From Chloroflexi bacterium GWC2_73_18 (GTDB lineage: Bacteria; Chloroflexota; Limnocylindria; Limnocylindrales; CSP1-4), in contig MGMJ01000050.1 of assembly GCA_001794945.1 (NCBI GenBank), positions 34,547-72,598 on the forward strand: a stretch of 38,052 bases of DNA, read 5' to 3'. Of the stretch, positions 7,089-30,671 are shown piece by piece. The notes under the pieces were generated by a model. It made no database searches. It saw only the letters and a program-made list of their open reading frames with translations, and was not told the DNA's origin. The translations under genes were made by a program, and so were the position numbers. Position 1 is the first letter of the stretch. The number at the start of each line of letters is the position of its first letter.

Positions 7089-7937
7089 TCAGCCCGCCAG
7101 CAGCCCCGCCAGCTTGCCCAGCAGACGCGCCGCCGCGCGCGGCGAAGAGAGGAGCACGTCGGCGGCGCCGGCGACGTCGGGTGGCATCTCGGCATGCGAG
7201 TGGACCCCCACGGCCAGCCCGTCGAGGGCCCCCGTGGCGCGCCGTTCGCGCAGGACCAGGAACATCTCCGCGTCGGCGCGGTCGTCGCCCAGGACGACGA
7301 GGCCGGCCGGGCGCAGCTCGTCGACGAGGCGGCGGATCGTCTCGCCCTTGCCGGCGGCGTCGGGCGGGCGGAGCTCGATGACGCGCCGTCCTGCGTAGCG
7401 CCGGAAGACCGCGCCCGGGTCGGCCGACTCGATCGCCTCGGCGACGCGGAGGCGGGCCGCCTCGCCGTCGGAGGCGCCCCGGAAGTGGAAGGCGACCGAC
7501 GGACCCTTCGGCTCCACCACGAGCCAGGGCTCGGGAAGCGCCGCCGCCACGCGCCCGGCAACCTGCTCCGCCTCGACGGTGAAGGGCGCCAGCTCCGGGT
7601 CGTGCACGACGCGCATGGCGGCGGCGCGGCCGCGTCGGGCGAGCGAGGCGCGCTCGAGGCCGAAGTTGCCCAGGTAGGTCGCCCCGCCGACCCGCGCCCG
7701 CGCCGCGAGGTCGGTCACCGTGCGCCCGGAGAGGAGCACGACGTGGACACCCCGGAGCGCCGCCAGCTGCCTCAGGGCGCGCTGCGCGACCGGGAGGACG
7801 CGCGCCCCCCAGGGGTCGACGACGATCTCGCTCAGCGTCCCGTCGAAATCCGAGGCGACCAGGAAGGGGCGTCGGCCGCGCAGCGAGGCGAGGCGCCCGA
7901 GGGCGACCTCGAGCGCGGCGTCCGCGTCACGCCTCAC
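7089..7937 (-). CDS. otsB: trehalose-6-phosphate phosphatase (HAD IIB)
   Basis: C-terminal part of ORF 7089..9566. Motifs SDFDGTL, LLSGR, EPKGPSVAFHFR, GKGE and LGDDRAD. The GTG at 7937 overlaps the stop of the upstream gene. Confidence 0.85.
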   Translation of the reverse strand: MRRDADAALEVALGRLASLRGRRPFLVASDFDGTLSEIVVDPWGARVLPVAQRALRQLAALRGVHVVLLSGRTVTDLAARARVGGATYLGNFGLERASLARRGRAAAMRVVHDPELAPFTVEAEQVAGRVAAALPEPWLVVEPKGPSVAFHFRGASDGEAARLRVAEAIESADPGAVFRRYAGRRVIELRPPDAAGKGETIRRLVDELRPAGLVVLGDDRADAEMFLVLRERRATGALDGLAVGVHSHAEMPPDVAGAADVLLSSPRAAARLLGKLAGLLAG

Positions 7938-8683
7938 GTGTCGAAGACGACGCCCGGCAGGACCTTCCCCAGCCCATCCCCCATCTGCGGCGGCCCGATC
8001 CCGCCGAAGGCCCAGGCGCGCACGATCCCGTCGCGGTCGATCCAGAAGTGCACCGGCATGACCCAGGCGGCCCAGAAGGCCCGCGTCTTCCCGTCCGGGT
8101 CGACGCCGACCGGGAAGGTCAGGCCCATCTCCTCGGCGAAGGCGGCGGCCGTCTCGGGCGACTCCTGGATATCGACGCCGATGACCACCAGGTCGAGCTC
8201 GGGATGGCGGGCGACGAAGCTGGCGATCAGCGGCAGCTCGTCGCGGCAGGCGAGGCAGGTGCTCGCCAGGAAGTTGACCCAGACCGGGTGACCGCGGTGG
8301 GCGGCCAGGTCGATCGTCCCGCCACCGAGGCGATCGACGACGAGGGGCGGGGCGAGGTCGCCGACCTGGAGGCCGGTCGTCGGGCTGCCGGAGGCGGCCG
8401 GTGAGCCGCTCTCCGGGGGAGACGGGCTCGTCCCGGGGGACGGCTCGAGCGACCCCGAGGGCAGGACCGAGGCGGAGGGGACGACCGGGGCGGAGGGCGA
8501 CTCGGGCGGAGGCGACGAGGGAGAGGCGGCGGGTGGCGGGCTCGGCGTGGGCGCCGGCGGCGGGGTCCGCGTCGCCGGGTCGGGCGCGTTCGCGACAAGG
8601 GCGCCGATCACCAGGACGACCAGCACGAGTCCGGCGACGAACCCGAGCAGGACCGGCGCGAGGCTGCGAGCGCGTCGTGACAC
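7934..8683 (-). CDS. membrane-anchored TlpA/ResA-family thiol-disulfide oxidoreductase
   Basis: N-terminal TM, Ser/Pro-rich linker, GDLAPP, WVNFLASTCLACRDELP (CxxC), MPVHFWIDRDGIVR. Confidence 0.88.
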   Translation of the reverse strand: MSRRARSLAPVLLGFVAGLVLVVLVIGALVANAPDPATRTPPPAPTPSPPPAASPSSPPPESPSAPVVPSASVLPSGSLEPSPGTSPSPPESGSPAASGSPTTGLQVGDLAPPLVVDRLGGGTIDLAAHRGHPVWVNFLASTCLACRDELPLIASFVARHPELDLVVIGVDIQESPETAAAFAEEMGLTFPVGVDPDGKTRAFWAAWVMPVHFWIDRDGIVRAWAFGGIGPPQMGDGLGKVLPGVVFDT

Positions 8684-8777: not shown

Positions 8778-9482
8778 GTGAGCCTCCTGACGCGTCTGCT
8801 CGGCCGCCTCCTGCGCCGTCTCGTGCCGGCGCTCCTGACCGCCTCCGGCGTGACGCTCCTCGTCGCCGGGCTTCTCTCGTACGACGCGACCGCCGGCCCG
8901 AGCCCCACGCCCCCGGCGACGACCAGCCCCTCGCCGGCGCCCACCTCCGGTCCGACGCCCTCGCCGGGATCCACCACCCCCGGGCCATCGGAGAGCCCGG
9001 CGCCGGGCGGCGTCGCCAGCCGCATCGCCATCCCCGCCCTCAAGATTGACCTGCCGGTCGTCGAGGGACCCCCCGGTTACCCCTACTGCGACGTGGCGAT
9101 GTACCTCAAGGAGTACTCCCAGCCCGGCCGGCCCGGCACGACCTACATCTTCGCCCACGCCCGAAAGGGGATGTTCCTGCCGCTCCTGGAGGCGTCCCTC
9201 CGCAGCAACGGGAAGTCGATGCTCGGCGCTCTCGTCCTCGTCTACACCACCGACGACCAGCTCTTCCTCTACGAGATCGACCGGGTCAAGCGCCACGCCC
9301 TCGACTTCTCGCTTGCCGACGAGCTCCCCGATGGGGTGACCGAGCAGCTCGTCCTGCAGACATCCGAGGGGCCCCACGGCACCAAGCCCAAGCTGCAGGT
9401 CCGCGCCAGGCTCCTCTACGTCACGACCGCCGATCACGAGCTGGCCAACCCCGAGCCGCACATCGATCGCTGCGGCTTCTAG
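8778..9482 (+). CDS. sortase-fold membrane protein with an atypical active site (LQTS instead of LxTC)
   Basis: N-terminal TM and Pro/Ser/Thr linker, then RIAIPALKIDLPVVEG, PGRPGTTYIFAHAR (catalytic His position) and LVLQTSEG..KLQVRA. Confidence 0.75.
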   Translation: MSLLTRLLGRLLRRLVPALLTASGVTLLVAGLLSYDATAGPSPTPPATTSPSPAPTSGPTPSPGSTTPGPSESPAPGGVASRIAIPALKIDLPVVEGPPGYPYCDVAMYLKEYSQPGRPGTTYIFAHARKGMFLPLLEASLRSNGKSMLGALVLVYTTDDQLFLYEIDRVKRHALDFSLADELPDGVTEQLVLQTSEGPHGTKPKLQVRARLLYVTTADHELANPEPHIDRCGF

Positions 9483-11118
9483 GGCCTGGGCGCGCCTGGA
9501 GGGCGATGGCGGCGTCCGCTTCCTCGCCGGCACCGTCGCCGGTCGCGCGCCGCGGTCGCCCCGCACCCAGCAGCCAGGCCGGCACGATCGCCGCGACCGT
9601 CACCGCCAGGGCAATCAGGAAGAGGAGCGACATGATCTCGGCCGCCTGCCCGGCGGCCCAGCGCTCGAGCGCCTCGACGACGAGGCCGTCGTTGAGCGGC
9701 CGCCCCCGCAGCCCCGGCGGCAGGATGGTGTCGCGGAGCAACGGGTCGCCAACGATCCGGGCGAGCGCATCGATCCGGTTGCTGCCGAACTGCGTCAGGA
9801 CCGCCAGCCCGACGGTCATGCCGACCATACGGGCGACGGTGACGGCGGCCGAGGCGGCGCCGTAGGCGCGCCGGCCGAGCGCCTCGACCGCGGCGGTCGA
9901 ACGCGGCGTCACGGTCACCCCGAAGCCGAAGCCGAAGAGGGCGAGGTCGAGGGCGATCCGGGCGAGGTCGACATCCGGGCCCCAGGCGCCCATCCGCACC
10001 AGGCCCAGCGCCGAGAACGCCAGGCCGGCGAGTGCCGAGACGCGGAAGGCGAGCGCCCGCACCAGGAAGCCGGAGAGGAAGGCACCCGCGGCGACCGCCG
10101 CGGCGAGCGCGCCGAGGGCGACGCGCTGCGTCTCGGGCCCACCGTAGAGGACGCGGTCGACGAAGACCGCGCCGCCGACGATCGCCGTAGCCAGGCCGTA
10201 CCCGGTGAGCAGGCTGACGAGGACCGCCGAAGCGTAGACCCGGTCGGCGAAGTGGCGCGTCTCGATGAACCCGTCGACCACCAGCGCCCCGCGGACGACG
10301 GCGAGCGCCACCAGCGCGGCCGAGGCGAGGGCGAGCGCGAGCAGGCCGCCCGTCCCGCCGGGGACTTCGGGCGAGCCGGCCCAGGTGACGGCGGCCAGGC
10401 CGCAGCCGAGGCCGGCGGCGAAGAGGAGAGCCCCCGGCAGGTCGACCCGCCCCGGCCGCCGCGGCGTGTCTGTTCCCATCGCCGCCCAGCTGTAGGCGAG
10501 CGCCACGAGCCCGACCGGCACGTTGACGTAGAAGACCCACCGCCAGGCCGGCGTCAGCCAGTCCATCGCCGGGCTCCCGGCCAGGCCGGCGCCGGTGAGC
10601 GGGCCCTCGAGGCGCGCCAGGTCGAGGACCGCCGCCCCCACGAACGGCCCGACCGCCATCCCCAGGAAGGTGAGCGCCCCGATCAGGCCGAGCGCGCGCG
10701 GCCGCCCGCGTTCGTCGAAGAGGTGGCTCGCCCCGGCGGTGGCCAGCGGTACGAGCGCGCCGCCGCCGGCCCCCTGGACGACGCGGGCGGCGATCAGCTC
10801 GTCGAGGTCCTGGGCGCGCCCGGCGAGCGCCGAGCCCACGGTGAAGAGGGCGAGCGCGGCGAGGAGCAGGCGGCGCGTGCCGAGGACGTCACTGGCGCGC
10901 CCCGCGACGGGCATGACGGCCACGTAGGCGAGCAGGTAACCGTTGATGATCCACGATGCCCGCCGGAGCTGCGTCCAATCGGAGAGGTCGGGCACGATCG
11001 CCGGCAGGGCGACGGCGGTCACCATCAGCTCGAGGCCGGCCAGGAAGACCCCCGCCCCCAGGACGGCGAGCAGGACGAGCCGCCCTGCCGCGGCGGCCGG
11101 CCGGGGCCCCTGCACCAT
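9421..11118 (-). CDS. MFS transporter, DHA2 (14-TM drug:H+ antiporter-like)
   Basis: ELMVTAVALP, WIINGYLL, GRASDVLGTRR, ARVVQGAGGG, WRWVFYVNVPVG. The ATG at 11118 is preceded by TACACT 6 nt upstream. Confidence 0.9.
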   Translation of the reverse strand: MVQGPRPAAAAGRLVLLAVLGAGVFLAGLELMVTAVALPAIVPDLSDWTQLRRASWIINGYLLAYVAVMPVAGRASDVLGTRRLLLAALALFTVGSALAGRAQDLDELIAARVVQGAGGGALVPLATAGASHLFDERGRPRALGLIGALTFLGMAVGPFVGAAVLDLARLEGPLTGAGLAGSPAMDWLTPAWRWVFYVNVPVGLVALAYSWAAMGTDTPRRPGRVDLPGALLFAAGLGCGLAAVTWAGSPEVPGGTGGLLALALASAALVALAVVRGALVVDGFIETRHFADRVYASAVLVSLLTGYGLATAIVGGAVFVDRVLYGGPETQRVALGALAAAVAAGAFLSGFLVRALAFRVSALAGLAFSALGLVRMGAWGPDVDLARIALDLALFGFGFGVTVTPRSTAAVEALGRRAYGAASAAVTVARMVGMTVGLAVLTQFGSNRIDALARIVGDPLLRDTILPPGLRGRPLNDGLVVEALERWAAGQAAEIMSLLFLIALAVTVAAIVPAWLLGAGRPRRATGDGAGEEADAAIALQARPGPRSRSDRCAARGWPARDRRS

Positions 11119-11188
11119 GCACGGAGTGTAGGGGCGAGGCCGGCGCCGCGGTCTGCCCCACGTCCGGCTCGTCACCGAGGGCCGGCCC

Positions 11189-11228: not shown

Positions 11229-11588
11229 ATGAAGAACGCAGCGCTCGAGACGCTCGGCCTCCGCGCCCCGGCGGGCGAGGACCTGCGCGACCTCAAGGTC
11301 TTCCACAAGGCGCTCGCCGACGTGACGCGCCTGCGCATCGTGCAGCTCCTCTCGGCCCGGCCGCGCACCGTCAACGAGTTGATCGAGGCGATCGGGCTCT
11401 CGCAGCCGCTCGTCTCCTGGCATCTGCGGCGGCTCCGGGTCGCCGGGATCGTGGCCACCCAGCGGACGGGTCGCGAGGTCCTCTGCTCCCTGCGTCACGA
11501 CGTCATCGAGCGCTTCACCCACCGCGAACGCGCGCTCCTCGGCCTGGCGCCCCTGGCCGAGCCGGCGGGCGGCAGCGGCGCCCGCTGA
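11229..11588 (+). CDS. ArsR/SmtB-family transcriptional regulator
   Basis: KALADVTRLRIVQLL...TVNEL...LSQPLVSWHLRRLRVAGIV winged HTH. Confidence 0.93.
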   Translation: MKNAALETLGLRAPAGEDLRDLKVFHKALADVTRLRIVQLLSARPRTVNELIEAIGLSQPLVSWHLRRLRVAGIVATQRTGREVLCSLRHDVIERFTHRERALLGLAPLAEPAGGSGAR

Positions 11589-11606
11589 CGTGGAGGCGAG
11601 CTGCCG

Positions 11607-12275
11607 ATGAGCCCGGTCACCGGCGATCGCTCGTTCGTCGGCGTGGGCCTGCGCCAGCGGGTCCGCGAGGCGGTGGTCCCGCTCGCCCGCGCCCTCGGAA
11701 GGCTCGGGCTGACGCCCGACGCACTCACCCTGATCGGCTTTGCCGTCTCCGTGGTCGCGGCACTCGCCGCGGCGGCCGGCCTCTGGGTGGCGGCCGGGCT
11801 CCTCGTCGTCTTCGGCGGCCTCTTCGATCTCTTCGACGGCGCCCTCGCCCGAGTCCAGGGGAAGGCCTCGCCCTACGGCGCCTTCCTCGACGCCACCTTC
11901 GACCGCTGGGGTGAGACGGTCGTCTTCATCGGCATCGCGGCCGGGCTGCTGGGCCCGGGCGCCGCGGGAGTCGTCTTCCCCGCCCTGGGCGAGTGGCCGG
12001 CGGCGGCGCTGGTCGCCGTCCTCGCCGGAGCGGCGATGGGGGCCGCCTTCATGGTCAGCTACAGCCGTGCGAAGGCCGAGAGCGTGGGCTTCGAGGCGGC
12101 TGTCGGTGTCGCACCGCGGGCAGAGCGCATCGCCGTCCTCGCCGCCGGTCTCGTCCTCCAACCGGCGACCGGCTGGAGCCTCGGAGCCGCGCTCCTCATC
12201 ATCTTCGCCCTCGCCACCGTCACCGTCATCCAGCGCGTCGCGCACGTCCGCGCCCAGGCGCGTACGGGGCGTTGA
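11607..12275 (+). CDS. pgsA: CDP-alcohol phosphatidyltransferase, phosphatidylinositol-phosphate synthase-like
   Basis: TPDALT and DLFDGALAR...[10 protein letters not shown] signature; [10 protein letters not shown]...RAER resembles PIP synthases; adjacent to ino1. Confidence 0.85.
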
Positions 12276-12301
12276 GCGGGCCAACTCAAGGAGACCGAGC
12301 A

Positions 12302-13522
12302 GTGGAGCAACAGCAGACCGCCGGCGGTGGCAACGGCCGGGCGCCGCGACGCCGCGACGGCAAGATCCGGGTCGCCATCGTCGGCGTGGGGAACTGCGCC
12401 AGCTCGCTCGTCCAGGGCCGCTACTACTACGAGAACGCCGAGCGGGGTCAACCCATCCCGGGCATCATGCACGTCGAGCTGGGCGGCTACCACATCCGCG
12501 ACATCGAGTTCGTGGCCGCCTTCGACATCGACCGCAACAAGGTCGGTCGCGACCTCGGCGAGGCGATCTACGCGGCGCCGAACAACACCTACGTCTTCAA
12601 GCAGGTCGGCACGCTCGGCGTCCCCGTCGAGCGCGGCATGACCCACGACGGCCTGGGCAAGTACCTGAGCCGCGTGATCGAGAAGGCGCCCGGCCCGACC
12701 GCCGACATCACCGGCATCCTGCGCGAGCGGGAGGTCGACGTCGTCGTCTCCTACCTGCCGGTCGGCTCGGAGGAGGCGACCAAGTGGTACGTGGAGCAGT
12801 GCCTCCGCGCCGGCGTCGCCTTCGTCAACTGCATCCCGGTCTTCATCGGTCGCGAGCCCTACTGGCAGCGCCGCTTCGTCGAGGCCGGCGTCCCGATCAT
12901 CGGCGACGACATCAAGAGCCAGGTCGGCGCCACGATCACCCACCGCGTGCTGACCCGCCTCTTCATGGATCGCGGGGTCAAGCTCGAACGCACCTACCAG
13001 CTCAACTTCGGCGGCAACACCGACTTCCTCAACATGCTCGAACGCGAGCGGCTCGAGTCGAAGAAGATCTCCAAGACGAACGCGGTCACCTCCATGCTGG
13101 ACTACGAGATCGCCGAGGGTGACGTGCACGTCGGCCCCAGCGACTACGTCCCCTGGCTCGACGACCGCAAGTGGTGCTACATCCGGATGGAGGGGACGAC
13201 CTTCGGTGACGTGCCGCTCAACGCCGAGCTCAAGCTCGAGGTGTGGGACAGCCCGAACAGTGCCGGCGTGGTGATCGACGCCATCCGCTGCGCCCGGCTC
13301 GGCCTCGACCGTGGCCTCGCCGGCACGCTCGTCGCGCCGTCGGCCTACTTCATGAAGAGCCCGCCACGCCAGCTGCACGATGACGAGGCCCGCGAGCTGG
13401 TCGAGGCATTCATCGCCGGCCGCGACGCGAGCGTGCTGACCGGCAGCGAGCCGGCGACGGCGCGGTCCCGGCCCACCCGCCGCGCCGCCGCCGGTCGTGC
13501 CCGGTCCGGGACCGACCGCTGA
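12302..13522 (+). CDS. ino1: myo-inositol-1-phosphate synthase
   Basis: [61 protein letters not shown] start at 12302 after AAGGAG. Confidence 0.97.
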
Positions 13523-13530
13523 GGCCGGCC

Positions 13531-14562
13531 GTGCAGCCGCGCATGATGGGCCTCCGACGGCCGGGCGGCGCCGAGGGCGCCCCCCACCGCCGGCCCGCCC
13601 GGCGGCGGAGCCGGCTCACGGTCACCATCCAGGAGCGCCCTGTCCTGCTCGGCTGGCGCGCCCTGGAGTGGTTCTTCGCCCGCATGCCGCCACGCCTTGC
13701 CGTGGCGGCGATGCGGGGGCTCTACACGCTCGCCTACTACGCCTGGCCGCCCAAGGCCGAGGTGATGCGCTCGAACATGGCGCACGTCATGGGCTGGCCC
13801 CGCGACGACGCGCGCACGGCGGCCATGGCCCGGCGTTCCTACCGGACGTACGGGCGGTACCTGGCCGAGCTCCTCCGCCTCCCGTCGCGCCCGCGCGAGG
13901 AGGTGAGCGGCCTGATGGACGAGCACCAGCTCGAGAGCTTCATGTCGCTGCGCGAGGGATCGCACGGGATGATCGTCGCGTCGGCCCATCTCGGCAACGG
14001 CGAGGCGATGGTCGCCGCCTTCGCCCACCTCGGACTCCCGAGCAACGTCCTGGCCGACGACAGCTCGCAGCTCGAGCTCTTCGAGTATCTCAACGCCCAG
14101 CGGTCGCGCTGGGGCGTGCGCATGGTCCCGTGGCGCAACCTGCGCGAGGTCTACCGCATCCTGCGGCGGGGCGAGATCCTGGGGATCACCGTCGACTGGG
14201 GCTACCGGCCCGGCGACGTGCCGGTGCGCCTCTTCGGCACCTGGACCACGCTGCCGGCCGGCCCCGCCACCCTTGCCGCGCGGACCCGGGCGCTGATCCT
14301 GCCGATCTTCTCGTACCGCCAGTCGAACGGCCGCTACTTCGCCTTCCATACCGAGCCGATCCGGGTCGCCGACGACGCGCCGGCGACGATCCAGCAGGCG
14401 ACACAACGGATCGCCGAGGCGCTCGAGGAGGCTGTGCGCCGGGCGCCCGAGCAGTGGTACAGCTTCAAGCGCGTCTGGCCACGCACGGCCGAAGAGCAGC
14501 TCCGCCTCGAGACGCGGGCGGCCGAGCTGCTCGGCGCCGGGGCACGGGCGGGGAGCGCGTGA
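13531..14562 (+). CDS. LpxL/HtrB-superfamily acyltransferase, PatA (PIM acyltransferase)-like, copy 1
   Basis: SAHLGNGE (Hx4E), GDVPVRLFG..PAGPATLA, PEQWY. The start codon is uncertain. Confidence 0.85.
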   Translation: MQPRMMGLRRPGGAEGAPHRRPARRRSRLTVTIQERPVLLGWRALEWFFARMPPRLAVAAMRGLYTLAYYAWPPKAEVMRSNMAHVMGWPRDDARTAAMARRSYRTYGRYLAELLRLPSRPREEVSGLMDEHQLESFMSLREGSHGMIVASAHLGNGEAMVAAFAHLGLPSNVLADDSSQLELFEYLNAQRSRWGVRMVPWRNLREVYRILRRGEILGITVDWGYRPGDVPVRLFGTWTTLPAGPATLAARTRALILPIFSYRQSNGRYFAFHTEPIRVADDAPATIQQATQRIAEALEEAVRRAPEQWYSFKRVWPRTAEEQLRLETRAAELLGAGARAGSA

Positions 14563-15575
14563 GGCCGATGGCCGCCACCGTCGCTCCGGCCGCGCCAGAC
14601 CAGGGGACCGCGTCGGCGACGCTCCTCGACCGAGCCGGCGCGACGCTCGTCTCGCTCATCTCGTGGATCGCCTGTCGCCTCCCCGACCGGCCGCTCCATC
14701 GGATCGCGGGGCTCGTCGGGCTCGGCTGGTACCTCCTCGCGCCGCGCCGGCGGGCGCGGGCGCGGCGCAACCTGCGGCGGGTCGCCGAGGCGCTGGCGGC
14801 CGACGGGCGGGCGGGCCCGCGCATCGCGGCCGCGGCCCGCGACCGGCGCGCGCTCGAACGGCTGGTCCGCGACGCCTTCCGCCACAATGCCCGCTACTAC
14901 CTGGAGGTCGCCCTGGCGCCCTCCTACGACGAGCGCTGGCTCGCCGAGCGGATCGTCAACGAGTCGCCCGAGCTGATCGAGGAGGCGTTCGCGGGAGGGC
15001 GCGGCGCGGGTCGGACGCCCGGGCACGCCGTCATCTTCGCCGGCCTCCACTTCGGGGCGATCGAGTTGCCCGCCTTCTTCCTGACCCAACGCGTCGGCCT
15101 GCGCGTCGTCGCCCCGATGGAGACGATCCGCGACACGCCACTGCAGCGCTACTTCGTGCGCACCCGCGGGGCGGTGGGCCTGCAGCTGGTGACGCTGCGG
15201 ACCGCGCGGCGCGAGGCGTCGCGCGCGCTGGCGCGCGGCGAGGCGGTCGGGCTGGTGACCGACCGCGACATCACCGGCGGCGGCATCGACGTCCCGCTCT
15301 TCGGCCACCCCGCCCCGCTGGCGGTGGGAGCCGGCCTGCTCGCCATCGAGTCGGGTGCGCCGGTCTACGTGGCCGCCGTCAGGCGGCTCGACGACGGCCG
15401 CTACGCCGGCAGCATCGTCCCGCTCCCCGTGCCGGCCGACGGGACGCGACGCGAGCGGCTGGAGCGCTTCCTGCGCGACCAGGCGGCGATCTTCGAGTCG
15501 TTCATCGCCGCGGCTCCGGAACAGTGGTGGTCGGTCTTCTTCCCCATCTGGCCCGACCTCGAGGTGGCGTCGTGA
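14559..15575 (+). CDS. LpxL/HtrB-superfamily acyltransferase, PatA-like, copy 2
   Basis: GLHFGAIE (Hx4E), TDRDITGGGIDVPLFG, PEQWW..PIWPD. Start is the GTG at 14559 (overlapping the upstream stop) or the ATG at 14568. Confidence 0.85.
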   Translation: MRPMAATVAPAAPDQGTASATLLDRAGATLVSLISWIACRLPDRPLHRIAGLVGLGWYLLAPRRRARARRNLRRVAEALAADGRAGPRIAAAARDRRALERLVRDAFRHNARYYLEVALAPSYDERWLAERIVNESPELIEEAFAGGRGAGRTPGHAVIFAGLHFGAIELPAFFLTQRVGLRVVAPMETIRDTPLQRYFVRTRGAVGLQLVTLRTARREASRALARGEAVGLVTDRDITGGGIDVPLFGHPAPLAVGAGLLAIESGAPVYVAAVRRLDDGRYAGSIVPLPVPADGTRRERLERFLRDQAAIFESFIAAAPEQWWSVFFPIWPDLEVAS

Positions 15576-16342
15576 CGAAACGCCTCGGCAAGGCCGACCT
15601 CCACATCCACTCGGTCGCCTCGGACGGGACCGCGACCGTCGGGGAGATCCTCCGTTTCGCCGAGGAGCAGACCGACCTCGACGTGATCGCCGTCACCGAC
15701 CACGACCGCGTCGATGCCGCGCTCCACGCCAGGGAGCTGGCGCGACGACGCGGTGGCCGCGTCGAGGTGATCGTCGGGGAGGAGGTCTCGACGCGCAGCG
15801 GGCATCTGCTCGCGCTCTTCGTCGAGGAGCGGATCCGGCCCTGGCAGCCGCTCCGCCGCTCGGTCGCGGAGATCCACGAGCAGGGCGGCCTGGCGATCCC
15901 GGCGCACCCGCTGGCACCGTATCCGATCTGTATCCGGCGGGGCGCGCTCCTCTCCATCGTGGAGGACGCCGATCCGCTCCTCTACTTCGACGGCCTCGAG
16001 ACATTCAACCCCTCCTACGCGGGTCGCACCCACCACCGCGCCACGGCCGAGCTGAATGAGCGGCTCCACCTCCCGGCGATCGGCAACAGCGACGCCCACG
16101 TCACCTCGCTCATCGGCTGCGCCTACACGACCTTCCCGGGCCGCACGACAGAGGACCTGAGGCGGGCGATCCTGCTCGGCCGGACCCACGCCCACGGGCA
16201 GTTCCTCGACCTGCCGGCGGAAGTGCGCATCTACGGGCGGCAGCTGCGCAAGTACGCCCGCGATGTCCGCGACGACCTGCGGCGGGCGATCCTCGGCCGC
16301 GGCTCCGGCCGCGACCTCGGGATCCGCAAGGAGTCCTCGTGA
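15572..16342 (+). CDS. PHP-family metal-dependent phosphoesterase
   Basis: ADLHIHS..SDG, VTDHD, GEEVST..GHLL, AHP, GNSDAH. The GTG at 15572 is coupled to the upstream stop. Confidence 0.9.
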   Translation: MTKRLGKADLHIHSVASDGTATVGEILRFAEEQTDLDVIAVTDHDRVDAALHARELARRRGGRVEVIVGEEVSTRSGHLLALFVEERIRPWQPLRRSVAEIHEQGGLAIPAHPLAPYPICIRRGALLSIVEDADPLLYFDGLETFNPSYAGRTHHRATAELNERLHLPAIGNSDAHVTSLIGCAYTTFPGRTTEDLRRAILLGRTHAHGQFLDLPAEVRIYGRQLRKYARDVRDDLRRAILGRGSGRDLGIRKESS

Positions 16343-17601
16343 GGATCGGCCTCGTCACTCCCTACATCTACCCGCTCCCCGGCGGCGTCAACGAGCACGT
16401 CCGCTACCTCTACCAGGAGCTGCGGGCGCGCGGCCACGAGGTGCGCATCATCAGCGCCAGTCACGGGCTCCAGCCCGGCCAGGATGGAGACGTCATCCGC
16501 GTCGGCAAGGGGTTCTCGGTCCCTTCCAACGGCTCGATGGGCAACCTGACCGTTTCGCCCCGCTTCAACTCGCAGGTTCGCGCCCTGCTCGATCGCGAGC
16601 GCTTCGACCTGCTCCACTTCCACGAGCCGTTCGTGCCGTTCCTCTCGCTGGTGACCCTCCGCCAGTCGACCAGCGTCAACATCGCCACCTTCCATGCCTA
16701 CGCCGGCTGGAGTCTCGCCTACGAGTTCGGCCGGCGTGCCCTGCGCGGCTACGCCGCGCGCCTCCACGGCCGGATCGCCGTCAGCGCCGCCGCCCGCCAT
16801 TTCGCCGACCGCTACTTCCCCGGCGACTACAAGGTGATCCCCAACGGCGTCGACCTCTCGCGCCTCGAGGGCGCCGAGCCGATCGAGCGCTGGCGCGACG
16901 GCACGAAGAACGTCCTCTTCGTGGGGCGTTTCGAGCCTCGCAAGGGGCTGCTTCACCTGCTCAAGGCATACCGGCTCCTGCGCAAGGCGGGCTGCGACTG
17001 CCGGCTCCTCGTCGTCGGCACCGGCCCGCAGGAGCGCGAGGTGCGACGCTACATCATGACCCGCCGCATGGGCGGGGTCGAGCTGCTCGGGCGCGTCTCG
17101 GACGCCGATAAGGCGCGGCTCTTCGCCACGGCCGACGTCTTCTGCTCACCGGCGACCGGGGGCGAGTCGTTCGGCATCGTCCTGCTCGAGGCGATGGCGG
17201 CCGGTCGTCCGATCGTCGCCTCGGACATCCACGGCTACAAAGGCGTCGTCCACCGTGATGAGCAGGCGCTCCTCGTCCCGCCGCGAGATCACCGCGCCCT
17301 CGCCGGGGCGCTCGGCCGGCTCCTCGCCGACGAGGAGCTGCGGCGGTGGATGGGCGAGGCCGGGCGGCTGCGGGCGGCCCAGTTCAGCTGGGAGCGCGTC
17401 GCCTCCAAGGTGGACGACTACTACGGCTTCGTCATCCGGCGCCTGGCCGCTCAGGGAGCGCTGCCGTCGGGCTTCCGCGCCGAGGTCCCGCCGGCCCCGC
17501 CGCGCGCCGCCGAACGGTCCGGGTCGATCGCCGCGGAGGCACCCGTGGCAGCGCCGGCCGCGGCCGACCCGATCGGCCGCCAGCCGGCCGTCGCTCAGTA
17601 G
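16339..17601 (+). CDS. pimA: GT4 glycosyltransferase, PimA (phosphatidylinositol alpha-mannosyltransferase)-like
   Basis: MRIGLVTPY..PGGV..HV, HFHEP, GRFEPRKG and GGESFGIVLLEAMAAG parallel mycobacterial PimA motifs; same operon as pgsA and the acyltransferases. Confidence 0.8.
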   Translation: MRIGLVTPYIYPLPGGVNEHVRYLYQELRARGHEVRIISASHGLQPGQDGDVIRVGKGFSVPSNGSMGNLTVSPRFNSQVRALLDRERFDLLHFHEPFVPFLSLVTLRQSTSVNIATFHAYAGWSLAYEFGRRALRGYAARLHGRIAVSAAARHFADRYFPGDYKVIPNGVDLSRLEGAEPIERWRDGTKNVLFVGRFEPRKGLLHLLKAYRLLRKAGCDCRLLVVGTGPQEREVRRYIMTRRMGGVELLGRVSDADKARLFATADVFCSPATGGESFGIVLLEAMAAGRPIVASDIHGYKGVVHRDEQALLVPPRDHRALAGALGRLLADEELRRWMGEAGRLRAAQFSWERVASKVDDYYGFVIRRLAAQGALPSGFRAEVPPAPPRAAERSGSIAAEAPVAAPAAADPIGRQPAVAQ

Positions 17602-18492: not shown

Positions 18493-18505
18493 GACTAGGA
18501 CTAGG
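18493..18505. repeat. tandem CTAG motif GACTAGGACTAGG (inverted copy at 25497-25509)
   Basis: Read directly. A further CGGACTAGG copy lies at 18466-18474. Confidence 0.6.
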
Positions 18506-21500
18506 CGCGGTCCACCCCCGCCCCGAGCGCGTCCGACGCGCCGTCGCCGGGGGCCCCGGTGCGTCGGGCCCAGACCGCGTAGCCCGTCGCCGCGGCGAAG
18601 AACCCGGTGCCGGCGACGAAGAGGAGCGGCCAGGGGCCCAGGATCGAGGTGGCGTTCGCCGGCGCGGTGTTGACCGCGAACTGGAACGAATAGTCCCAGG
18701 TGGGCAGAAGGCGCTGATACGAGTACGCCTCCGGGTCGGCCGGCAGCGGCAGGCCCGAGATGTTCGGGTAGACGGCCAGGAAGTAGAGCGCGGCCGCCGC
18801 CAGCGCCACCATCACGTAGCGGCGAGGGTCGCGCGCGCCGAGTACCAGCCAGCCGAGCGCCCCCGCGAGGGCCAGGTAACCGACGACCAGCACGACCGCG
18901 GTGGTGATGAGGGCGCGGGTCGAGCCGGGGTCGAGGCTGCCCGAGCCGGTGCAGAGGTAAGCGCCCGGGTTGACCTGCCCGACGCCGGCGGCGGCGCAGA
19001 GCGGGTCCTTGAGCAGCCAGAGCAGCCCGGGCGCCATGATCGTCACCGCGGCCACGGCGCGGGCGAACTGCCAGGTGCGACGCGAGGGGCCGTGCCAGAG
19101 CTCGGCCAGGAAGTAGGCGAGCAGGAGCAGCGCGAAGGGGAGCGCCGTGTACCAATGGTACTGGAAGGTGGCGCGGTCGATGCGCGCCCAGGGGAGCCAC
19201 TGGGAGAGGAACGCCAGGACGACGAAGCCGAGCGCCGCGCTGCGTCGCCCCCAGGCCTGCCAGGCGCCGAAGGCCGCCGCCGGGACGGCCAGCCAGAAGA
19301 GGACCAGGTTGCCCATGTCGAAGATGTAGCCCTGCGTCCCACCGCCGTACGCCTGCGATGAGAACCAGACCGGCTTGAGATCGAACGGCCAGGCCCACCA
19401 GGGCGACGAGGCGGGGTGCGTGGCGCGCAGGTGGTCGTGGTAGTCGTACATGCCACCCTGCAGGTCGACGAAGAGCTGGCCCTCGTGGCCGGGTGGCCAG
19501 CCTGGCACGATCTGCGGGCCGCCGGCGTGCCACGGCATCGCCCACGGGACGTAGCTGAGCACGTAGACCGCCAGCGGCAGCGCGGTGAGGGCGAGGAGCG
19601 CCAGAAGGAAGGGGGCGCCGCCCAGGCGGACCGGGTCCGCCCAGCGCGGCTCGACCCGTCCAGCCACGGGGCGGAGCACGATCCCCGCGGCGAGCAGGGC
19701 GGTCAACCCGACCATCAGGCCGAAGAAGAAGAGGTTCGGCGGCGTCTGGACGACGGCCAGGTAGCCGAGGACGCCGGTCAGCACGACCATCCCCGCGAGC
19801 GCCAGGAGCCGCCCGGCACTCGAGCGGAACAGGACGATCAGCACCGCGCCGCCGATGGCGTAGGCGCCGACCCACTTCGCCGCCAGCGCCAGGCCGAGCA
19901 GGCCGCCGATGGCCGGCAGCCCGAGGAGGACGGCCAGGCGCCCGGTCCGGCCGGCCGGCGGGTCGATGAGCAGCCAGGCCAGCGCCAGGTAGGCGGCCAC
20001 GATGAAGAGGCCGACGTAGGTGTCGTTCATGGCGATCCGCGAGGTGGCGAAGAGCATCCCGTCGAGCAGCGCGACCACCGCCACCAGGAGCCCGACGGCA
20101 CGCCGCCGGAAGAGCCGGCGCGCCAGCAGGTAGAGGGCGGCCGCCAGCAGCACGCCGGCGACGACACCGGGGAAGCGCCAGGCGAAGGCGTTGCCGCCCG
20201 TGTCAACGGCGGCGACCCGGCCGCCGGCCTCGAAGACGAGCGCCTCCTCGCGGTCCAGCGCCGGGGTGTCCCGGGCGGCGTCAAGCACCAGGACGGCCGG
20301 GCGGAAGGGGAGGGCCGCGTCGGCGAAGACGGCGTTGGCGTGGGGCTCGACCACGTAGATCGTGGAGCGGCCGTCCGGCGTCTCGCCGAGCACGTGGACC
20401 AGGTTCGTCGCGGCGTTCCAGCGCACCTCGCCGACCGGTCCTGGCATCGCGAAGCCGGATCCCGGTCGGGGCGGCCCGTCGTCGCCCAGCTGGAACGTCT
20501 CGATGCGGGCGCCTTCCGTGGCGACGTAGAGCGTCGGCCGGTCGAGGCCGCCGACGCGGTCGAGGCCGGTCGCCGCCGCCGTCAGCGGCTCCTGGTCGAT
20601 CGTCTCGAGGGAGACCGCGTCGAGGATGGAGAGTCCGCTCCCGGCGGCCACGGCGAGCGCCTCGCGGTCGGTCACCTCGATGCCCGGCAGGTCGCCCGCG
20701 TCGATGGCGGCCTGCAGCTCGCTGCGCTGCTCGGCAGTCAGGTAGGAGGCGAGGCGGAGCTCATCGCCGCCGGCGCGGAGCCGCGCCGCGAGCGAGGCGC
20801 CGGAAACGCCGAGGACGTCGCCGAGGCGCGCGCCGGCCGCCTCCGGGTCGGTCACCTGCGCCGGATGGGCGACCAGGCTGCTGACCCCGCTCAGCGGGAT
20901 CGCGGCGGCCAGGCCCGGCACCGTCGCCGCGCCGGCCACTTCGCCCGTTTCCGGGTCGAGGCTGCTCAACCGGTCCCCCGCGCCGCGCAACACGACACGC
21001 CGGCCGGCGACCCAGAGCCGCTGGACGGGGCCTTCGACGCGCCCGACCTCGACGGGCTGCGCCGCCTGCGGCTCGCCGCCGACGCTCCGCAGGAGGTCGA
21101 GCCGGCCGGTCTCGAGCTGCCAGACGAGGCCCGTGTCGGTGCCGACGTAGAGCCGGTGCGCCGAGCTGTCGACGGCGACCGCGGAGGCTCCGTTGACGGA
21201 GAGGCGCGACTCGTCCTCACGGGAGAGCAGGTCGAGGACGCGGACGGCCGAGCCGGTGGCCACGAAGAGCCGGTCGCCGGCGCGCCGCTGCGGCTCGAGC
21301 GGGTCGGCGTAGCGCGGCTCGACGGCGACGTCGCGGACAGGCGTCCCGAGCGAGCTCTCGCCGGTGACGCGATCGTCGCCGAAGAGCACGATCCCCGCCG
21401 CGATCAGGTACTTCGCCAGGTGGGGGTGCGTGTACTCGTAGATGTCGTGCGGCATCCCGTAGCGCCAGTCCTGCAGGAACTCGGTCGCCGTTCGCGCGTG

Positions 21501-23360
21501 GTAGACCTCGTCGAAGTGCATCCCGTAGGGCTGGTCGAGCCGGAAGGTGCGGAGGGTCAGGGCGGCCACGATCAGCAGCGCCACGACCAGCGCATCGAGG
21601 CGGTCGAGACGGCCGGAGCCTTCGGCCCCCAGGAGCCGGCTCCGGTCGGCCCGCACCGCCGGGCGGGACAACCGGCGGCGCAGGGAGCCGAGCGCCACCG
21701 CCCCCGTGGCGGGTCCTGCGATTTCGGGCGCCTCGGTCACCGCCGGGGCGGGCACGAGGGTTGGGGCGGCCGCCCGCTCGAGTGGCACGGTCGGCCCTCC
21801 CGGCGCCCCGGCCGGCGGCCGGCTCCAGGGAGTCCGCCAGACGCGCCTCACCGGTTCGATCTCGGGCTCCGGCGCCGGTCTCGGCGCCCGGCCCAGGAGG
21901 CCGAGCAGGTCGTCGACCGCGGGTCGCAGCTGCCAGAGCGCCCAGGCGAAGAGGGCGGTGTGGGCGATCGCCACGATCACGACGGCGGCCTCGGTGCGGG
22001 TCTCCTCGGCGAAGAGGAGCCCGCGGAGCTGGGGCGTCCCGTAACCCTCCTGGGGCCGCGTCAGCACGGCGTGGAGGTTGACCAGGTTGACCAGCCCCAG
22101 CAGGACGTACCAGCGCCGCCAGGCGACCGAGCCGGCGGCCAGGAGCGCCCCCACCGCGAAGACCGGGAAGAGGTATCGCTCGTGGACGCGGGTGGGGAGG
22201 ACGAAGAGGCCGAGGGCGAGCACGGTCGTGGCCACGACGATCGAGGTCCGGTCGTCACGGCGCAGGAGCTGCCAGGCGATGAAGGCGAGGCCGGCGAGCA
22301 GAAGTCCCGTGCCGACGGCGACAAAGGGGACGGCCCCGAAGGCGAGGCCCAGGTCGCTCGTCCAGACGCCGGCGTGGGCCAGCGAGGTCGGGCCCACGAG
22401 CGCCCACAGGTTGTAGGCGTTGACCGTCAGGTAGTGGTACTCGCCTGCCGTCGAGCCGACCAGCACGAGCAGGCCGCCCAGGTCCCCGCCGATCGGGAAG
22501 CCGGGCGCCCGAGCCACCGCCAGCTCGGCCAGGTCGAAGGGAGTGATCGTGGCGAACGCGACGAGGAGTCCGACCGCCGCCGAGGAGACGAGCCGCCAGG
22601 GACCCTGCTCCGTGGTGAACCAGCCGCCCAGGCGGCCATCGAGCCAGGCGAGCGCGCCGCGCGGCTCGGGCACCGGCCCGCTCCCGGGGCGGAGCAGGTG
22701 GCGCCGCAGCAAGACGATCCCGACGACGAGCAGGACGATCCCGTACTGCGGCTTGATGATCGGGGCGAGCACGGCGGCGGCGACCGCCGGCTCGCTCCAG
22801 CCGCGGATCAAGAGCAGGACGGCGCCGAGCAGGACGAGCGCGCCGACCGCATCGACCTGGCCCCAGAGCGCCGACTCGTACCAGGTGATCGGGATGAAGA
22901 GATAGAGGGCGGCGGCGGCGAGCCCGGCGCGCTCGCCGGACCAGCCACGCGCCGTGCGATAGAGGACGCAGGCGAGGATGAGGTCGAAGACGATGGCGGG
23001 GACCTTGATCAGCGAGCTGACGTAGGCGCCCGCGCCGGCACCGGTGAGGTCGCCCAGGAAGCGCGCCGTCAGGCCCACCATCCAGAGCGGGTAGAGGTAG
23101 CCGGGGGTGTAGTCGGCGAAGCCGGCGTTCCGGTAGAAACCGTCCGGGCCGTGCTCGGCGAGGGTCAGCGCCCAGCTCGAGAAGCTGTCGATGTCGACCT
23201 TGAAGCCGGCGCCGGGGAAGAGGCCGTATGCGATGATGACCCGGAGCGCGAGGCCGGCGAGCAGCACGGCCACGAGGGCGGGGGTGATCGCCGGTACCGG
23301 GACCCGGCCTCCCGACGCTCCGGAGCCCCGACCGGGTTCACCCGTCTGGGGCGCTCTCAA
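18501..23360 (-). CDS. ~1619-aa GT-C fusion: N-terminal polyprenol-P-sugar-dependent mannosyltransferase-like domain + protein O-mannosyltransferase (PMT/GT39) domain with a large extracytoplasmic insert
   Basis: N-domain: DYTPGY, ESALWGQVD, KPQ, NAYNLW, PTRVHERY. C-domain: FDEVYH, YEYTHPHLAK, AWRFP, SRIAMND, KWVG, HPASSPWWAWP, GNLVLFW. TTG start at 23360 with AGGAGG 9 nt upstream. Confidence 0.85.
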   Translation of the reverse strand: MRAPQTGEPGRGSGASGGRVPVPAITPALVAVLLAGLALRVIIAYGLFPGAGFKVDIDSFSSWALTLAEHGPDGFYRNAGFADYTPGYLYPLWMVGLTARFLGDLTGAGAGAYVSSLIKVPAIVFDLILACVLYRTARGWSGERAGLAAAALYLFIPITWYESALWGQVDAVGALVLLGAVLLLIRGWSEPAVAAAVLAPIIKPQYGIVLLVVGIVLLRRHLLRPGSGPVPEPRGALAWLDGRLGGWFTTEQGPWRLVSSAAVGLLVAFATITPFDLAELAVARAPGFPIGGDLGGLLVLVGSTAGEYHYLTVNAYNLWALVGPTSLAHAGVWTSDLGLAFGAVPFVAVGTGLLLAGLAFIAWQLLRRDDRTSIVVATTVLALGLFVLPTRVHERYLFPVFAVGALLAAGSVAWRRWYVLLGLVNLVNLHAVLTRPQEGYGTPQLRGLLFAEETRTEAAVVIVAIAHTALFAWALWQLRPAVDDLLGLLGRAPRPAPEPEIEPVRRVWRTPWSRPPAGAPGGPTVPLERAAAPTLVPAPAVTEAPEIAGPATGAVALGSLRRRLSRPAVRADRSRLLGAEGSGRLDRLDALVVALLIVAALTLRTFRLDQPYGMHFDEVYHARTATEFLQDWRYGMPHDIYEYTHPHLAKYLIAAGIVLFGDDRVTGESSLGTPVRDVAVEPRYADPLEPQRRAGDRLFVATGSAVRVLDLLSREDESRLSVNGASAVAVDSSAHRLYVGTDTGLVWQLETGRLDLLRSVGGEPQAAQPVEVGRVEGPVQRLWVAGRRVVLRGAGDRLSSLDPETGEVAGAATVPGLAAAIPLSGVSSLVAHPAQVTDPEAAGARLGDVLGVSGASLAARLRAGGDELRLASYLTAEQRSELQAAIDAGDLPGIEVTDREALAVAAGSGLSILDAVSLETIDQEPLTAAATGLDRVGGLDRPTLYVATEGARIETFQLGDDGPPRPGSGFAMPGPVGEVRWNAATNLVHVLGETPDGRSTIYVVEPHANAVFADAALPFRPAVLVLDAARDTPALDREEALVFEAGGRVAAVDTGGNAFAWRFPGVVAGVLLAAALYLLARRLFRRRAVGLLVAVVALLDGMLFATSRIAMNDTYVGLFIVAAYLALAWLLIDPPAGRTGRLAVLLGLPAIGGLLGLALAAKWVGAYAIGGAVLIVLFRSSAGRLLALAGMVVLTGVLGYLAVVQTPPNLFFFGLMVGLTALLAAGIVLRPVAGRVEPRWADPVRLGGAPFLLALLALTALPLAVYVLSYVPWAMPWHAGGPQIVPGWPPGHEGQLFVDLQGGMYDYHDHLRATHPASSPWWAWPFDLKPVWFSSQAYGGGTQGYIFDMGNLVLFWLAVPAAAFGAWQAWGRRSAALGFVVLAFLSQWLPWARIDRATFQYHWYTALPFALLLLAYFLAELWHGPSRRTWQFARAVAAVTIMAPGLLWLLKDPLCAAAGVGQVNPGAYLCTGSGSLDPGSTRALITTAVVLVVGYLALAGALGWLVLGARDPRRYVMVALAAAALYFLAVYPNISGLPLPADPEAYSYQRLLPTWDYSFQFAVNTAPANATSILGPWPLLFVAGTGFFAAATGYAVWARRTGAPGDGASDALGAGVDRA

Positions 23361-23390
23361 TCGGTCCGGCCTCCTGGACGAGCGACGAAG

Positions 23391-24662: not shown

Positions 24663-24705
24663 TCGGCGGGCTGACGCCGCCCGGCATTGTGGGACACTTC
24701 GCGCC

Positions 24706-25494
24706 GTGACCGCTGCCCGGGTCCCCGAGATCTCCTACTTCTTCCCGGCCCACAACGAGGAGGCCAATCTCGAGGCGCTCATGGACGAGGCGCTCGAGGC
24801 GCTCCCCGAGCTGGCCGAGCGCTTCGAGATCATCGCCGTCGACGACGGCAGCCGCGACGGCACGCCGGCGATCGCCGACCGCCTGGCGGCGTCCCATGCG
24901 GGCGTCGTCCGCGTCGTCCACCACCCCACGAACCTCGGCTACGGCGCCGCGCTGCGCAGCGGCTTCCGCGCCGCCCGCTACCCGCTCGTCTGCTTCACCG
25001 ACGGCGACCGCCAGTTCAGGGTCGCCGACCTCGGCCGCCTTCTCGAGCGCGCCGCCGGGCCCGACCGCCCCGACGTCGTGGCCGGCTTCCGCTTGAAGCG
25101 CGCCGATCCGCCGCTCCGGCTCGCCTATGCGCACATCTACCGGGCCTGCCTGGGCCTCTTCTTCAGGCTCTGGGTCCGCGACGTCGACTGCGCCTGCAAG
25201 CTCTTCCGGCGCGGTGCGCTCGAGGGGATCCGCCTCGAGTCGGGCGGGGCGTTCCTCTCGGCCGAGCTCCTGATCAAGCTACGCGCGGGGGGCCGCTCGC
25301 TCGTCGAGGTCGGCGTGCCGCACTACCCGCGAACGGCCGGCTCGCCGACCGGGGCGAAGCCGTCGGTGATCCTGCGCGCGGTGCGCGACTTCTGGCGGCT
25401 CCGCCTCCTGCTCTGGTTCGCCCCGGCGCGCGCCCGGGGCCGCGGAGCGGCGGTGCTCGGCGACGCCGCTGCGGATGGCGGTCGAGAAGCCTAG
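24706..25494 (+). CDS. GT2 glycosyltransferase, polyprenol-phosphate mannose/glucose synthase-like
   Basis: FFPAHNEEAN, VDDGSRDGT, NLGYGAAL, FTDGDRQF, DVDCACKLFRR, HYPRTAG. The GTG at 24706 is 7 nt after TGgGACACT. Confidence 0.9.
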   Translation: MTAARVPEISYFFPAHNEEANLEALMDEALEALPELAERFEIIAVDDGSRDGTPAIADRLAASHAGVVRVVHHPTNLGYGAALRSGFRAARYPLVCFTDGDRQFRVADLGRLLERAAGPDRPDVVAGFRLKRADPPLRLAYAHIYRACLGLFFRLWVRDVDCACKLFRRGALEGIRLESGGAFLSAELLIKLRAGGRSLVEVGVPHYPRTAGSPTGAKPSVILRAVRDFWRLRLLLWFAPARARGRGAAVLGDAAADGGREA

Positions 25495-30643: not shown

Positions 30644-30671
30644 CGCGGGTGCGTGCGGGGCCGCAGCCGCG

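Follow-up and report, generated by a model that had tools for sequence, protein, structure and literature searches.

A Limnocylindria gene cluster with predicted functions in the synthesis of phosphatidylinositol and acylated phosphatidylinositol mannosides

The window considered in this study, i.e., the whole stretch of 38,052 nucleotides from contig MGMJ01000050.1 of Chloroflexi bacterium GWC2_73_18 (contig C50 of an assembly of 2.93 Mb, with 137 contigs and a completeness of 89.6%), contains on its + strand, from position 11229 to position 17601, seven tightly coupled genes whose Pfam and NCBIfam matches point to a putative operon for phosphatidylinositol (PI) and acylated phosphatidylinositol mannosides (PIMs). 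The block opens with an ArsR/SmtB-family transcription regulator (11229 to 11588; Pfam HTH_5, E = 4.5e-15; NCBIfam NF033788, 76.7 bits versus a cut-off of 55), followed by a PgsA1-like CDP-alcohol phosphatidyltransferase of 222 amino acids, the putative phosphatidylinositol phosphate (PIP) synthase or PIPS (11607 to 12275; CDP-OH_P_transf, E = 2.1e-12), and by INO1, a predicted myo-inositol-3-phosphate (1L-myo-inositol-1-phosphate) synthase of 406 amino acids (12302 to 13522; Inos-1-P_synth, PF01658, E = 1.2e-37). Two PatA-like acyltransferases of the LpxL/HtrB/PatA family come next, AT1 (13531 to 14562, with an alternative ATG start at 13543; Lip_A_acyltrans, E = 5.8e-35) and AT2 (14559 to 15575, alternative ATG start at 14568; Lip_A_acyltrans, E = 4.5e-26). 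The last two genes encode a PHP-family metal-dependent phosphoesterase of 256 amino acids (15572 to 16342; PHP_C, E = 3.7e-12; PHP, E = 1.4e-6) and a PimA-like GT4 glycosyltransferase of 420 amino acids (16339 to 17601; Glycos_transf_1, E = 1.9e-37; Glyco_transf_4, E = 1.1e-25), in which both the N-terminal and the C-terminal domains of the GT-B fold are matched.

The original prediction, a note made from the letters of the window, had listed the last six of these genes as tightly coupled. Domain matches and inspection of the junctions confirmed its gene content and coordinates on the + strand, but the regulator at the head of the block had been overlooked. The term "tightly coupled" is appropriate because the gaps are short or replaced by overlaps of 4 nucleotides. 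In particular, the inspection of the start codons gave a gap of 18 nucleotides between arsR and the PIPS gene, one of 26 between the latter and ino1 (which starts with GTG at 12302, preceded by an AAGGAGA ribosome-binding site), and one of 8 to 20 between ino1 and AT1, depending on the start. AT1 and AT2 either overlap by 4 nucleotides (GTG at 14559) or are separated by 5 (ATG at 14568), and overlaps of 4 nucleotides occur at the AT2/PHP junction (GTG at 15572, stop at 15575) and at the PHP/GT4 junction (GTG at 16339, stop at 16342).

The best matches of the GT4 protein among the structures in the PDB were those of PimA from Mycobacterium smegmatis (2gej and 4n9w; E = 3e-64, 220 bits, residues 1 to 362), over the full length, whereas the next solved GT4 enzyme scored 83 bits, PimB' 77 bits, and two MshA-type chains 74 and 69 bits. 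Of three further GT4 paralogues from the same genome that were compared with the PDB in the same way, two scored no higher than 78 bits with any of the solved GT4 enzymes, and the third had no match at an E value of 1e-15 or lower. Moreover, the GT4 protein is the reciprocal best hit of PimA from Tsukamurella tyrosinosolvens, identified by synteny in its thrS-HIT-PIPS-PatA-PimA-NUDIX locus (192 bits, with the next paralogue of the genome at 69 bits). The predicted grouping with PimA thus held in both comparisons. The protein is approximately 35 to 40% identical to characterized PimA and 35 to 39% identical to actinobacterial PimA, two actinobacterial records with PimA having been found by a protein search of a plasmid collection. 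In the alignment with PimA, the residues Y9, G16, H118, R196, R201, K202, D253, K256, E274, and E282 (M. smegmatis numbering), which we take to be catalytic or involved in GDP-mannose binding, are identical.

A quick maximum-likelihood tree of the GT4 proteins was calculated with 66 of the 137 rows assembled, 71 other representatives being left out; it comprised the window protein, the three paralogues of its genome, the two actinobacterial PimAs, 21 loci, four named representatives, and every third remaining representative. All of the Chloroflexota GT4s form one clade of 59 rows (SH-like approximate likelihood ratio test [SH-aLRT], 95), which the two actinobacterial PimAs adjoin. The paralogues on contigs C118 and C127 lie on long branches outside this clade, and that on contig C53 lies on a very long branch whose placement beside the actinobacterial rows is unsettled. 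Since the outgroup consists of three own paralogues and two actinobacterial PimAs, a thin sample, the tree agrees with orthology to PimA without proving it. A reading of INO1 as part of a mycothiol pathway was rejected on the strength of the GT4 scores, 69 to 74 bits on the MshA structures versus 220 on PimA, with mshB, mshC, and mshD not having been searched for. As a separate observation, three representatives with 37 to 39% identity to the window GT4, all above 243 bits (P0244, P0258, and P0231), carry the names of a "Deltaproteobacteria" metagenome-assembled genome (MAG), Patescibacteria, and Hydrothermae/WOR-3, and SAR202 is also found among the names of the wider family. On account of these representatives, the PimA-like family reaches beyond both Chloroflexota and Actinomycetota at the sequence level, and enzymes of this type may occur in several phyla that have been little studied.

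For both acyltransferases, PatA was the best match in the PDB (AT1, 53 bits with 5f2t/5oce; AT2, 38 bits with 5f2t). The best NCBIfam match of AT1 was the PIM acyltransferase model NF005919 (109.6 bits), on which AT2 scored 100.2 bits. When Tsukamurella PatA was used as the query in the genome, AT1 was the best match with 79 bits and AT2 followed with 59 bits. The two proteins are 26 to 28% identical to each other. In a tree of 34 rows (locus L081 was left out because its open reading frames [ORFs] were not extractable), the copies in the first position from all classes form one clade with an SH-aLRT value of 92, and the copies in the second position are separate from it. It follows from this arrangement that the acyltransferase duplication, as reconstructed from the tree, is ancient and predates the classes. 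The age of the duplication and the maintenance of the two copies in the same order therefore argue for two distinct jobs. We know of no enzyme to which the second PIM acylation in mycobacteria has been assigned.

The best PDB matches of the PIPS protein were PIP synthases (5d91/5d92, 76.5 bits; 6h53 from Mycobacterium tuberculosis, 66.7 bits), and the motif D(x2)DG(x2)AR(x8)G(x3)D(x3)D is visible in the alignment with these structures. The protein was the sole match in the genome when Tsukamurella PIPS was used as the query. As for INO1, which occurs as a single copy in the genome, the model TIGR03450 was matched over its full length (1 to 355 of 355) with 529.9 bits. Furthermore, the genome contains, outside the block, a gene for CdsA and a ManC-like gene for GDP-mannose.

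The PHP protein contains the CehA/McbA metallohydrolase domain NF038032 (92.3 bits versus a cut-off of 80). In an alignment of 27 sequences, the residues D9, H13, D18, D43, H44, E71, H78, H102, H112, E143, D174, and H176 are invariant, and H11 is nearly so. The AlphaFold2 model of the protein (predicted local distance difference test score, 92.8) was matched by Foldseek to PHP structures with a probability of 1.00, the nearest ones being 3e38 and 2anu, two PHP phosphoesterases without an assigned function, and the PHP domain of RNase AM (7ug9). The sources label the protein only as a "predicted metal-dependent phosphoesterase TrpH," and its neighbors in the ESM Atlas are "hypothetical proteins" of Chloroflexota. 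In most of the related loci, the stop codon of the PHP gene overlaps the start of the GT4 gene, and the gene occurs across loci both with and without the acyltransferases. According to Heaver et al. (2022, PMC9246714), the bacterial pathway was devoid of a PIP phosphatase until BT_1525, a member of the PgpA family, was described, and no phosphatase family other than PgpA has yet been linked to this step in bacteria. A match to the PgpA family (PF04608) was not found anywhere in the 89.6%-complete genome of the window. Because of this negative result, the coupling of the PHP gene to the GT4 gene, and its presence with or without acyltransferases, we propose the PHP protein for the conversion of PIP into PI. 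Considering its genomic context, we regard it as a candidate PIP phosphatase at roughly even odds; its fold differs from that of PgpA, and the candidate would thus be nonhomologous to BT_1525.

To evaluate the conservation of the block, one genome per prokaryote species was scanned with an alignment of 36 GT4 sequences, which yielded at least 595 relatives in at least 599 stretches, and the seven proteins were compared by tblastn with the best 80 loci. Among these, 55 were informative, i.e., they extended at least 5.5 kb upstream and at least 2 kb downstream of the GT4 gene. Within 7 kb of the latter, PIPS was found in all 55 informative loci, INO1 in 52, the two acyltransferases in 42, and PHP, always directly ahead of GT4, in 42. 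The order in Limnocylindria is regulator-PIPS-INO1-AT-AT-PHP-GT4, exactly so in 29 loci, with variants arising from split matches, and the order in the other classes is (regulator)-INO1-(AT-AT)-(PHP)-GT4-PIPS, with the components in parentheses not always present. The regulator heads the cluster in the Limnocylindria loci and also in some of the others. Ten loci contain INO1-GT4-PIPS alone, and two (L066 and L078) contain INO1-PHP-GT4-PIPS, a set that would correspond exactly to the four steps predicted to lead from glucose-6-phosphate to a PI monomannoside (PIM1). The gene order is therefore kept throughout the lineage and also outside it, in several classes of Chloroflexota, as the original prediction had proposed to verify by synteny, and its recurrence in related loci from many genomes rules out a chance juxtaposition. 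A PimA-like GT4 match (E ≤ 1e-50) was present in 288 of 401 sampled Chloroflexota genomes, six unpublished ones included (G172, G252, G068, G367, G296, and G199), and in 229 of the 322 with a completeness of at least 90%; two families gave no match (0 of 24 and 0 of 25 genomes).

The host had been predicted to be nonactinobacterial, and the taxonomy agrees with this expectation. The nearest homologues of the GT4 protein, with 72 to 79% identity, are entered at NCBI as "Candidatus Limnocylindrales bacterium" or "Chloroflexota bacterium," and 77 of the best 80 loci among those of the at least 595 GT4 relatives have titles referring to Chloroflexota (Limnocylindrales or Limnocylindria, "uncultured Chloroflexia," Dehalococcoidia, SAR202, Anaerolineae, and Chloroheliaceae). 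Judging from these sequences, the genome belongs to Chloroflexota, class Limnocylindria, and not to Actinomycetota. The three other titles are those of a "Sphingomonadaceae" MAG (L056), a "Ca. Acidoferrum" MAG (L071), and an unclassified "bacterium." We observed that L071 and L056 carry a cluster of the Chloroflexota type; in the acyltransferase tree, both copies of L071 are joined by very short branches to their counterparts in the Chloroflexi locus L076. This pattern suggests that L071 was binned wrongly, and mis-binning is likely for both loci.

What we observed are the identities of the genes, their coupling, the conservation of the cluster within the phylum, and the specific likeness of its products to characterized PimA, PatA, and PIPS; all of the reactions, the sugar that is transferred, the sites of acylation, and the function of the PHP protein are inferred from these observations. 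Ino1 would convert glucose-6-phosphate into inositol phosphate, which PIPS would join to CDP-diacylglycerol to give PIP, and the PHP phosphoesterase, a step suggested by its gene context, would strip the headgroup phosphate to leave PI. The PimA-like GT4 would then add a hexose to the inositol, most likely mannose from GDP-mannose, and the two PatA-like acyltransferases would attach one or two extra acyl chains, probably at two different positions, with the ArsR-type protein presumably regulating the block. The most likely series of products would thus be PI, a PI-mannoside, and acylated forms thereof. We consider it likely, with some reserve, that the block at 11229 to 17601 is one operon for PI and an acylated PI mannoside in a Limnocylindria bacterium of soil or freshwater, and the pathway appears as a variant of the known actinobacterial one for PI and acylated PIMs, more complete, with an added PHP protein and a second ancient acyltransferase, in another phylum. 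The description of the pathway as "complete" would hold only on the condition that PIP is dephosphorylated by the PHP protein. It is possible to hypothesize further that the acyl-PIM pathway of Chloroflexota is ancient, that the PHP protein is its PIP phosphatase, that the two PatA paralogues acylate different positions, one of them perhaps being of the type responsible for the second PIM acylation in mycobacteria, and that the membranes of Limnocylindrales are based on PI and PI-glycolipids rather than on phosphatidylglycerol, phosphatidylethanolamine, and cardiolipin; we put forward this wider proposal tentatively and regard it, taken as a whole, as rather doubtful.

Several observations weigh against the interpretation as an operon for PI and acylated PIM. 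The NCBIfam scores are below the respective cut-offs for INO1 (529.9 bits versus 638 for the actinobacterial equivalog TIGR03450), for PIPS (122 bits on the bacterial PIP synthase model NF045883, cut-off 170), and for AT1 and AT2 (110 and 100 bits on NF005919, cut-off 209). PIPS also scored 133 bits on the archaeal archaetidylinositol-phosphate (AIP) synthase model NF040950, below its cut-off of 180, and, given these values, the window protein was filed as PIPS-like and not as an equivalog. In both acyltransferases the H(x4)D motif of PatA reads H(x4)E, with the His being kept, and E200 of PatA aligns with an Asp; we take this His and E200 (M. smegmatis numbering) to be the catalytic residue and its acidic partner, respectively. 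In the GT4 protein, T119 of PimA is replaced by Ala and Q18 by Asn, and the basic membrane-binding stretch of PimA is poorly conserved. None of the three own GT4 paralogues tested on the PDB prefers PimB', and, since a clear PimB' orthologue was not seen among them, the mannoside may stop at one sugar. As for the PHP protein, the comparisons with the PDB, by sequence and with Foldseek, and with the ESM Atlas gave no characterized close relative; the gene is missing from 13 of the 55 informative loci, and the PHP matches are weak (72 bits at most) in five genomes of Dehalococcoidia whose cluster is the minimal INO1-GT4-PIPS one, so that PHP cannot be a universal phosphatase of the pathway. Two PAP2 phosphatases encoded elsewhere in the genome of the window could carry out the PIP step.

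The 13 loci without the PHP gene and the two PAP2 genes also fit a reading whose probability we place not far below an even chance, namely, that the lipid pathway is correct, with the PHP protein acting as a substitute for an IMPase or pAp phosphatase, or hydrolyzing nucleotides or nucleotide sugars for housekeeping or regulation, much like the NUDIX gene behind pimA in Mycobacteriales, and with PAP2 or another phosphatase acting on PIP. No match to the IMPase/CysQ family (PF00459) was found in the genome of the window, versus 14 of 14 control genomes in which the family was present, so the PHP protein may fill this gap. RNase AM and the 3',5'-bisphosphonucleotide-type enzyme 2yb1 are among its closest relatives of solved structure, in sequence or in fold, and a NUDIX gene ends the Tsukamurella operon at the equivalent place. 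However, the missing IMPase counts for little since the genome is only 89.6% complete, and a synthase of the PIPS type can work without free inositol. Moreover, the translational coupling of PHP to GT4 in most loci and its occurrence with and without acyltransferases, including the INO1-PHP-GT4-PIPS loci, fit a step of the core pathway.

With respect to the glycosyltransferase, the product would not be a PIM if the GT4 protein were a relative of PimA with another donor or acceptor, transferring glucose, N-acetylglucosamine, or galactose to PI, or a sugar to diacylglycerol. The identity of only about 35 to 40% to characterized PimA and the replacement of some PimA residues would allow for this, sugar specificity being unreadable from the sequence, and "unidentified glycolipids" are reported for cultured Chloroflexota (PMC12453558). 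We nevertheless deem such a change unlikely, considering that the residues aligned with the presumed GDP-mannose contacts of PimA are kept, that PIPS lies near GT4 in all of the informative loci, that a ManC-like gene is present, and that PimB', MshA, and glycogen synthases score far below PimA. It is very improbable that the product is not a membrane lipid but a soluble inositol-phosphate solute of the di-myo-inositol-phosphate (DIP) or mannosyl-DIP type. Although the DIP pathway likewise draws on an inositol phosphate synthase, a CDP-alcohol transferase, and a phosphatase, and AF2299 and the IPCT/DIPPS structure are weak matches of PIPS (40 and 33 bits), the PIP synthase structures, at 76 bits, score far above these DIPPS-type ones, and the NCBIfam DIPPS model gave 35 bits versus 122 to 133 for the PIP and AIP synthase models. 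The cluster, moreover, is without a cytidylyltransferase domain and contains two lipid acyltransferases of the LpxL/PatA family, and the compatible-solute reading was rejected on these grounds. We also rejected, as barely conceivable, the reading that the operon is of actinobacterial origin and came into the Chloroflexota MAG through mis-binning or a very recent transfer. A G+C content of approximately 72% is shared with many Actinomycetota, but it is uniform over the 38-kb window, with dnaA, dnaN, recF, and nuo genes alongside; the same operon occurs in long contigs, up to 2.3 Mb, of many Chloroflexota MAGs; and the nearest homologues, at 72 to 79% identity, are all named Chloroflexota, versus 35 to 39% identity to actinobacterial PimA.

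PIMs and their acylated forms are regarded as a hallmark of the envelopes of Actinomycetota and as anchors of lipomannan and lipoarabinomannan. The pgsA1-patA-pimA region of Mycobacteriales, exemplified by T. tyrosinosolvens (NZ_LR134463.1; thrS-HIT-PIPS-PatA-GT4-NUDIX), shares with the putative operon of the window three families, tightly coupled and in the same relative order PIPS-PatA-GT4, and for PIPS, PatA, and PimA alike, its gene and that of the window find each other as best hits. The operon of the window differs by the addition of INO1, of another PatA paralogue that diverged in ancient times, of PHP, and of ArsR, and by the lack of the HIT and NUDIX genes; the identities are 35 to 37% for PimA, 25 to 28% for PatA, and 32 to 35% for PIPS, and the hosts are an actinomycetote and a chloroflexote, respectively. 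With archaeal AIP synthase, PIPS would have in common the CDP-alcohol transfer with inositol phosphate (the scores of 133 bits for AIP synthase and 122 for PIP synthase are both below the cut-offs), but the genome of the window is bacterial, with CdsA and ester-lipid acyltransferases. The BT_1522-BT_1526 cluster of Bacteroides thetaiotaomicron (PMC9246714) is similar in joining an inositol phosphate synthase, a PIPS, and a PIP phosphatase and in forming PI via PIP; its phosphatase, however, is the PgpA-family BT_1525, whereas the window cluster has an enzyme with the PHP fold, and it leads to inositol sphingolipids, without PimA or PatA.

Our full-text searches brought up no paper that deals with PIM, PimA, or PIP synthase in Chloroflexi/Chloroflexota or Limnocylindria, although species descriptions may report PIMs. 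The original prediction called the system undescribed; the word is too strong, given that PI is reported as a major polar lipid of a cultured species of Chloroflexota, Dictyobacter, alongside glycolipids and phospholipids of unassigned identity (PMC12453558), and that the pipelines of the Joint Genome Institute automatically name these GT4s "phosphatidylinositol alpha-mannosyltransferase." A conserved and more complete operon in another phylum would move the origin of this class of lipids outside Actinomycetota, and it offers a concrete candidate enzyme for the step from PIP to PI. The compact set of seven genes is experimentally tractable for expression in a laboratory host, and its predicted products would be a class of biomarkers for the environmental lipidomics of soil and freshwater Chloroflexota, which are abundant and have few cultures.

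A census of the CDP-alcohol transferases, based on six-frame profile searches of incomplete MAGs, showed that PIPS is the only PF01066 match in the 89.6%-complete genome of the window. In 30 relatives (G001 to G030), 25 genomes had exactly one match, two had two, and three had none; in those that were compared, the single match coincides in position with the PIPS orthologue. Three more genomes of the family, from a high-completeness sample that includes the unpublished genome G068, had one weak match of the PIPS type each. Two to six PF01066 matches occur per genome in the sister family, which belongs to the same class, and in many other Chloroflexota, strong PgsA-like ones included (two to three, again with PgsA-like ones, in the sister family alone). 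A profile search for PLD-type proteins (PLDc_2) gave no match in the window's genome at its 89.6% completeness, and the relatives have a mixture of strong and weak matches, which could be cardiolipin synthase or other proteins. Since PIPS is the only CDP-alcohol phosphatidyltransferase detected, inositol lipids may be the only phospholipids made from CDP-diacylglycerol in Limnocylindrales, which we offer as a lead and not as a result.

Upstream of the operon, the window contains nuo genes, an ORF with a sortase domain, and a DHA2-family MFS transporter (9421 to 11175, − strand), which is divergent from the ArsR gene and keeps this position in most Limnocylindrales loci. The downstream flank is convergent, with a CAP-domain protein and a GT-C protein of the PMT type, and continues with a GT2 protein, a bifunctional-nuclease protein, and recF-dnaN-dnaA. 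The latter three genes (29504 to 33595, − strand) lie 12 to 16 kb downstream of the operon; the location "beside oriC" is thus correct in a loose sense only, with the GT-C protein, the GT2 protein, and others in between, and we read no meaning into the proximity. Two ORFs, at 26818 to 29103 (− strand, 761 amino acids) and 7194 to 8291 (+ strand, 365 amino acids), have a G+C content at third codon positions of the coding type and no Pfam or NCBIfam match. The GT-C protein (18501 to 23870, − strand) has 1,789 amino acids, with PMT_2 at approximately 288 to 369, PMT at 1226 to 1348, and PMT_4TMC at 1467 to 1613, and reached no more than 44 bits with the model for protein O-mannosyltransferase. 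Its gene, convergent to the operon, is conserved directly downstream in the Limnocylindrales loci too, and the protein might extend PI-mannosides or mannosylate proteins from polyprenyl-phosphate sugars. The GT2 protein (24643 to 25494, + strand, 283 amino acids), which weakly resembles synthases of polyprenyl-phosphate sugars, with 48 bits on PpgS and 46 bits on dolichyl-phosphate hexose transferase, all far under the cut-offs, could be the supplier of a lipid-linked sugar to this giant neighbor.

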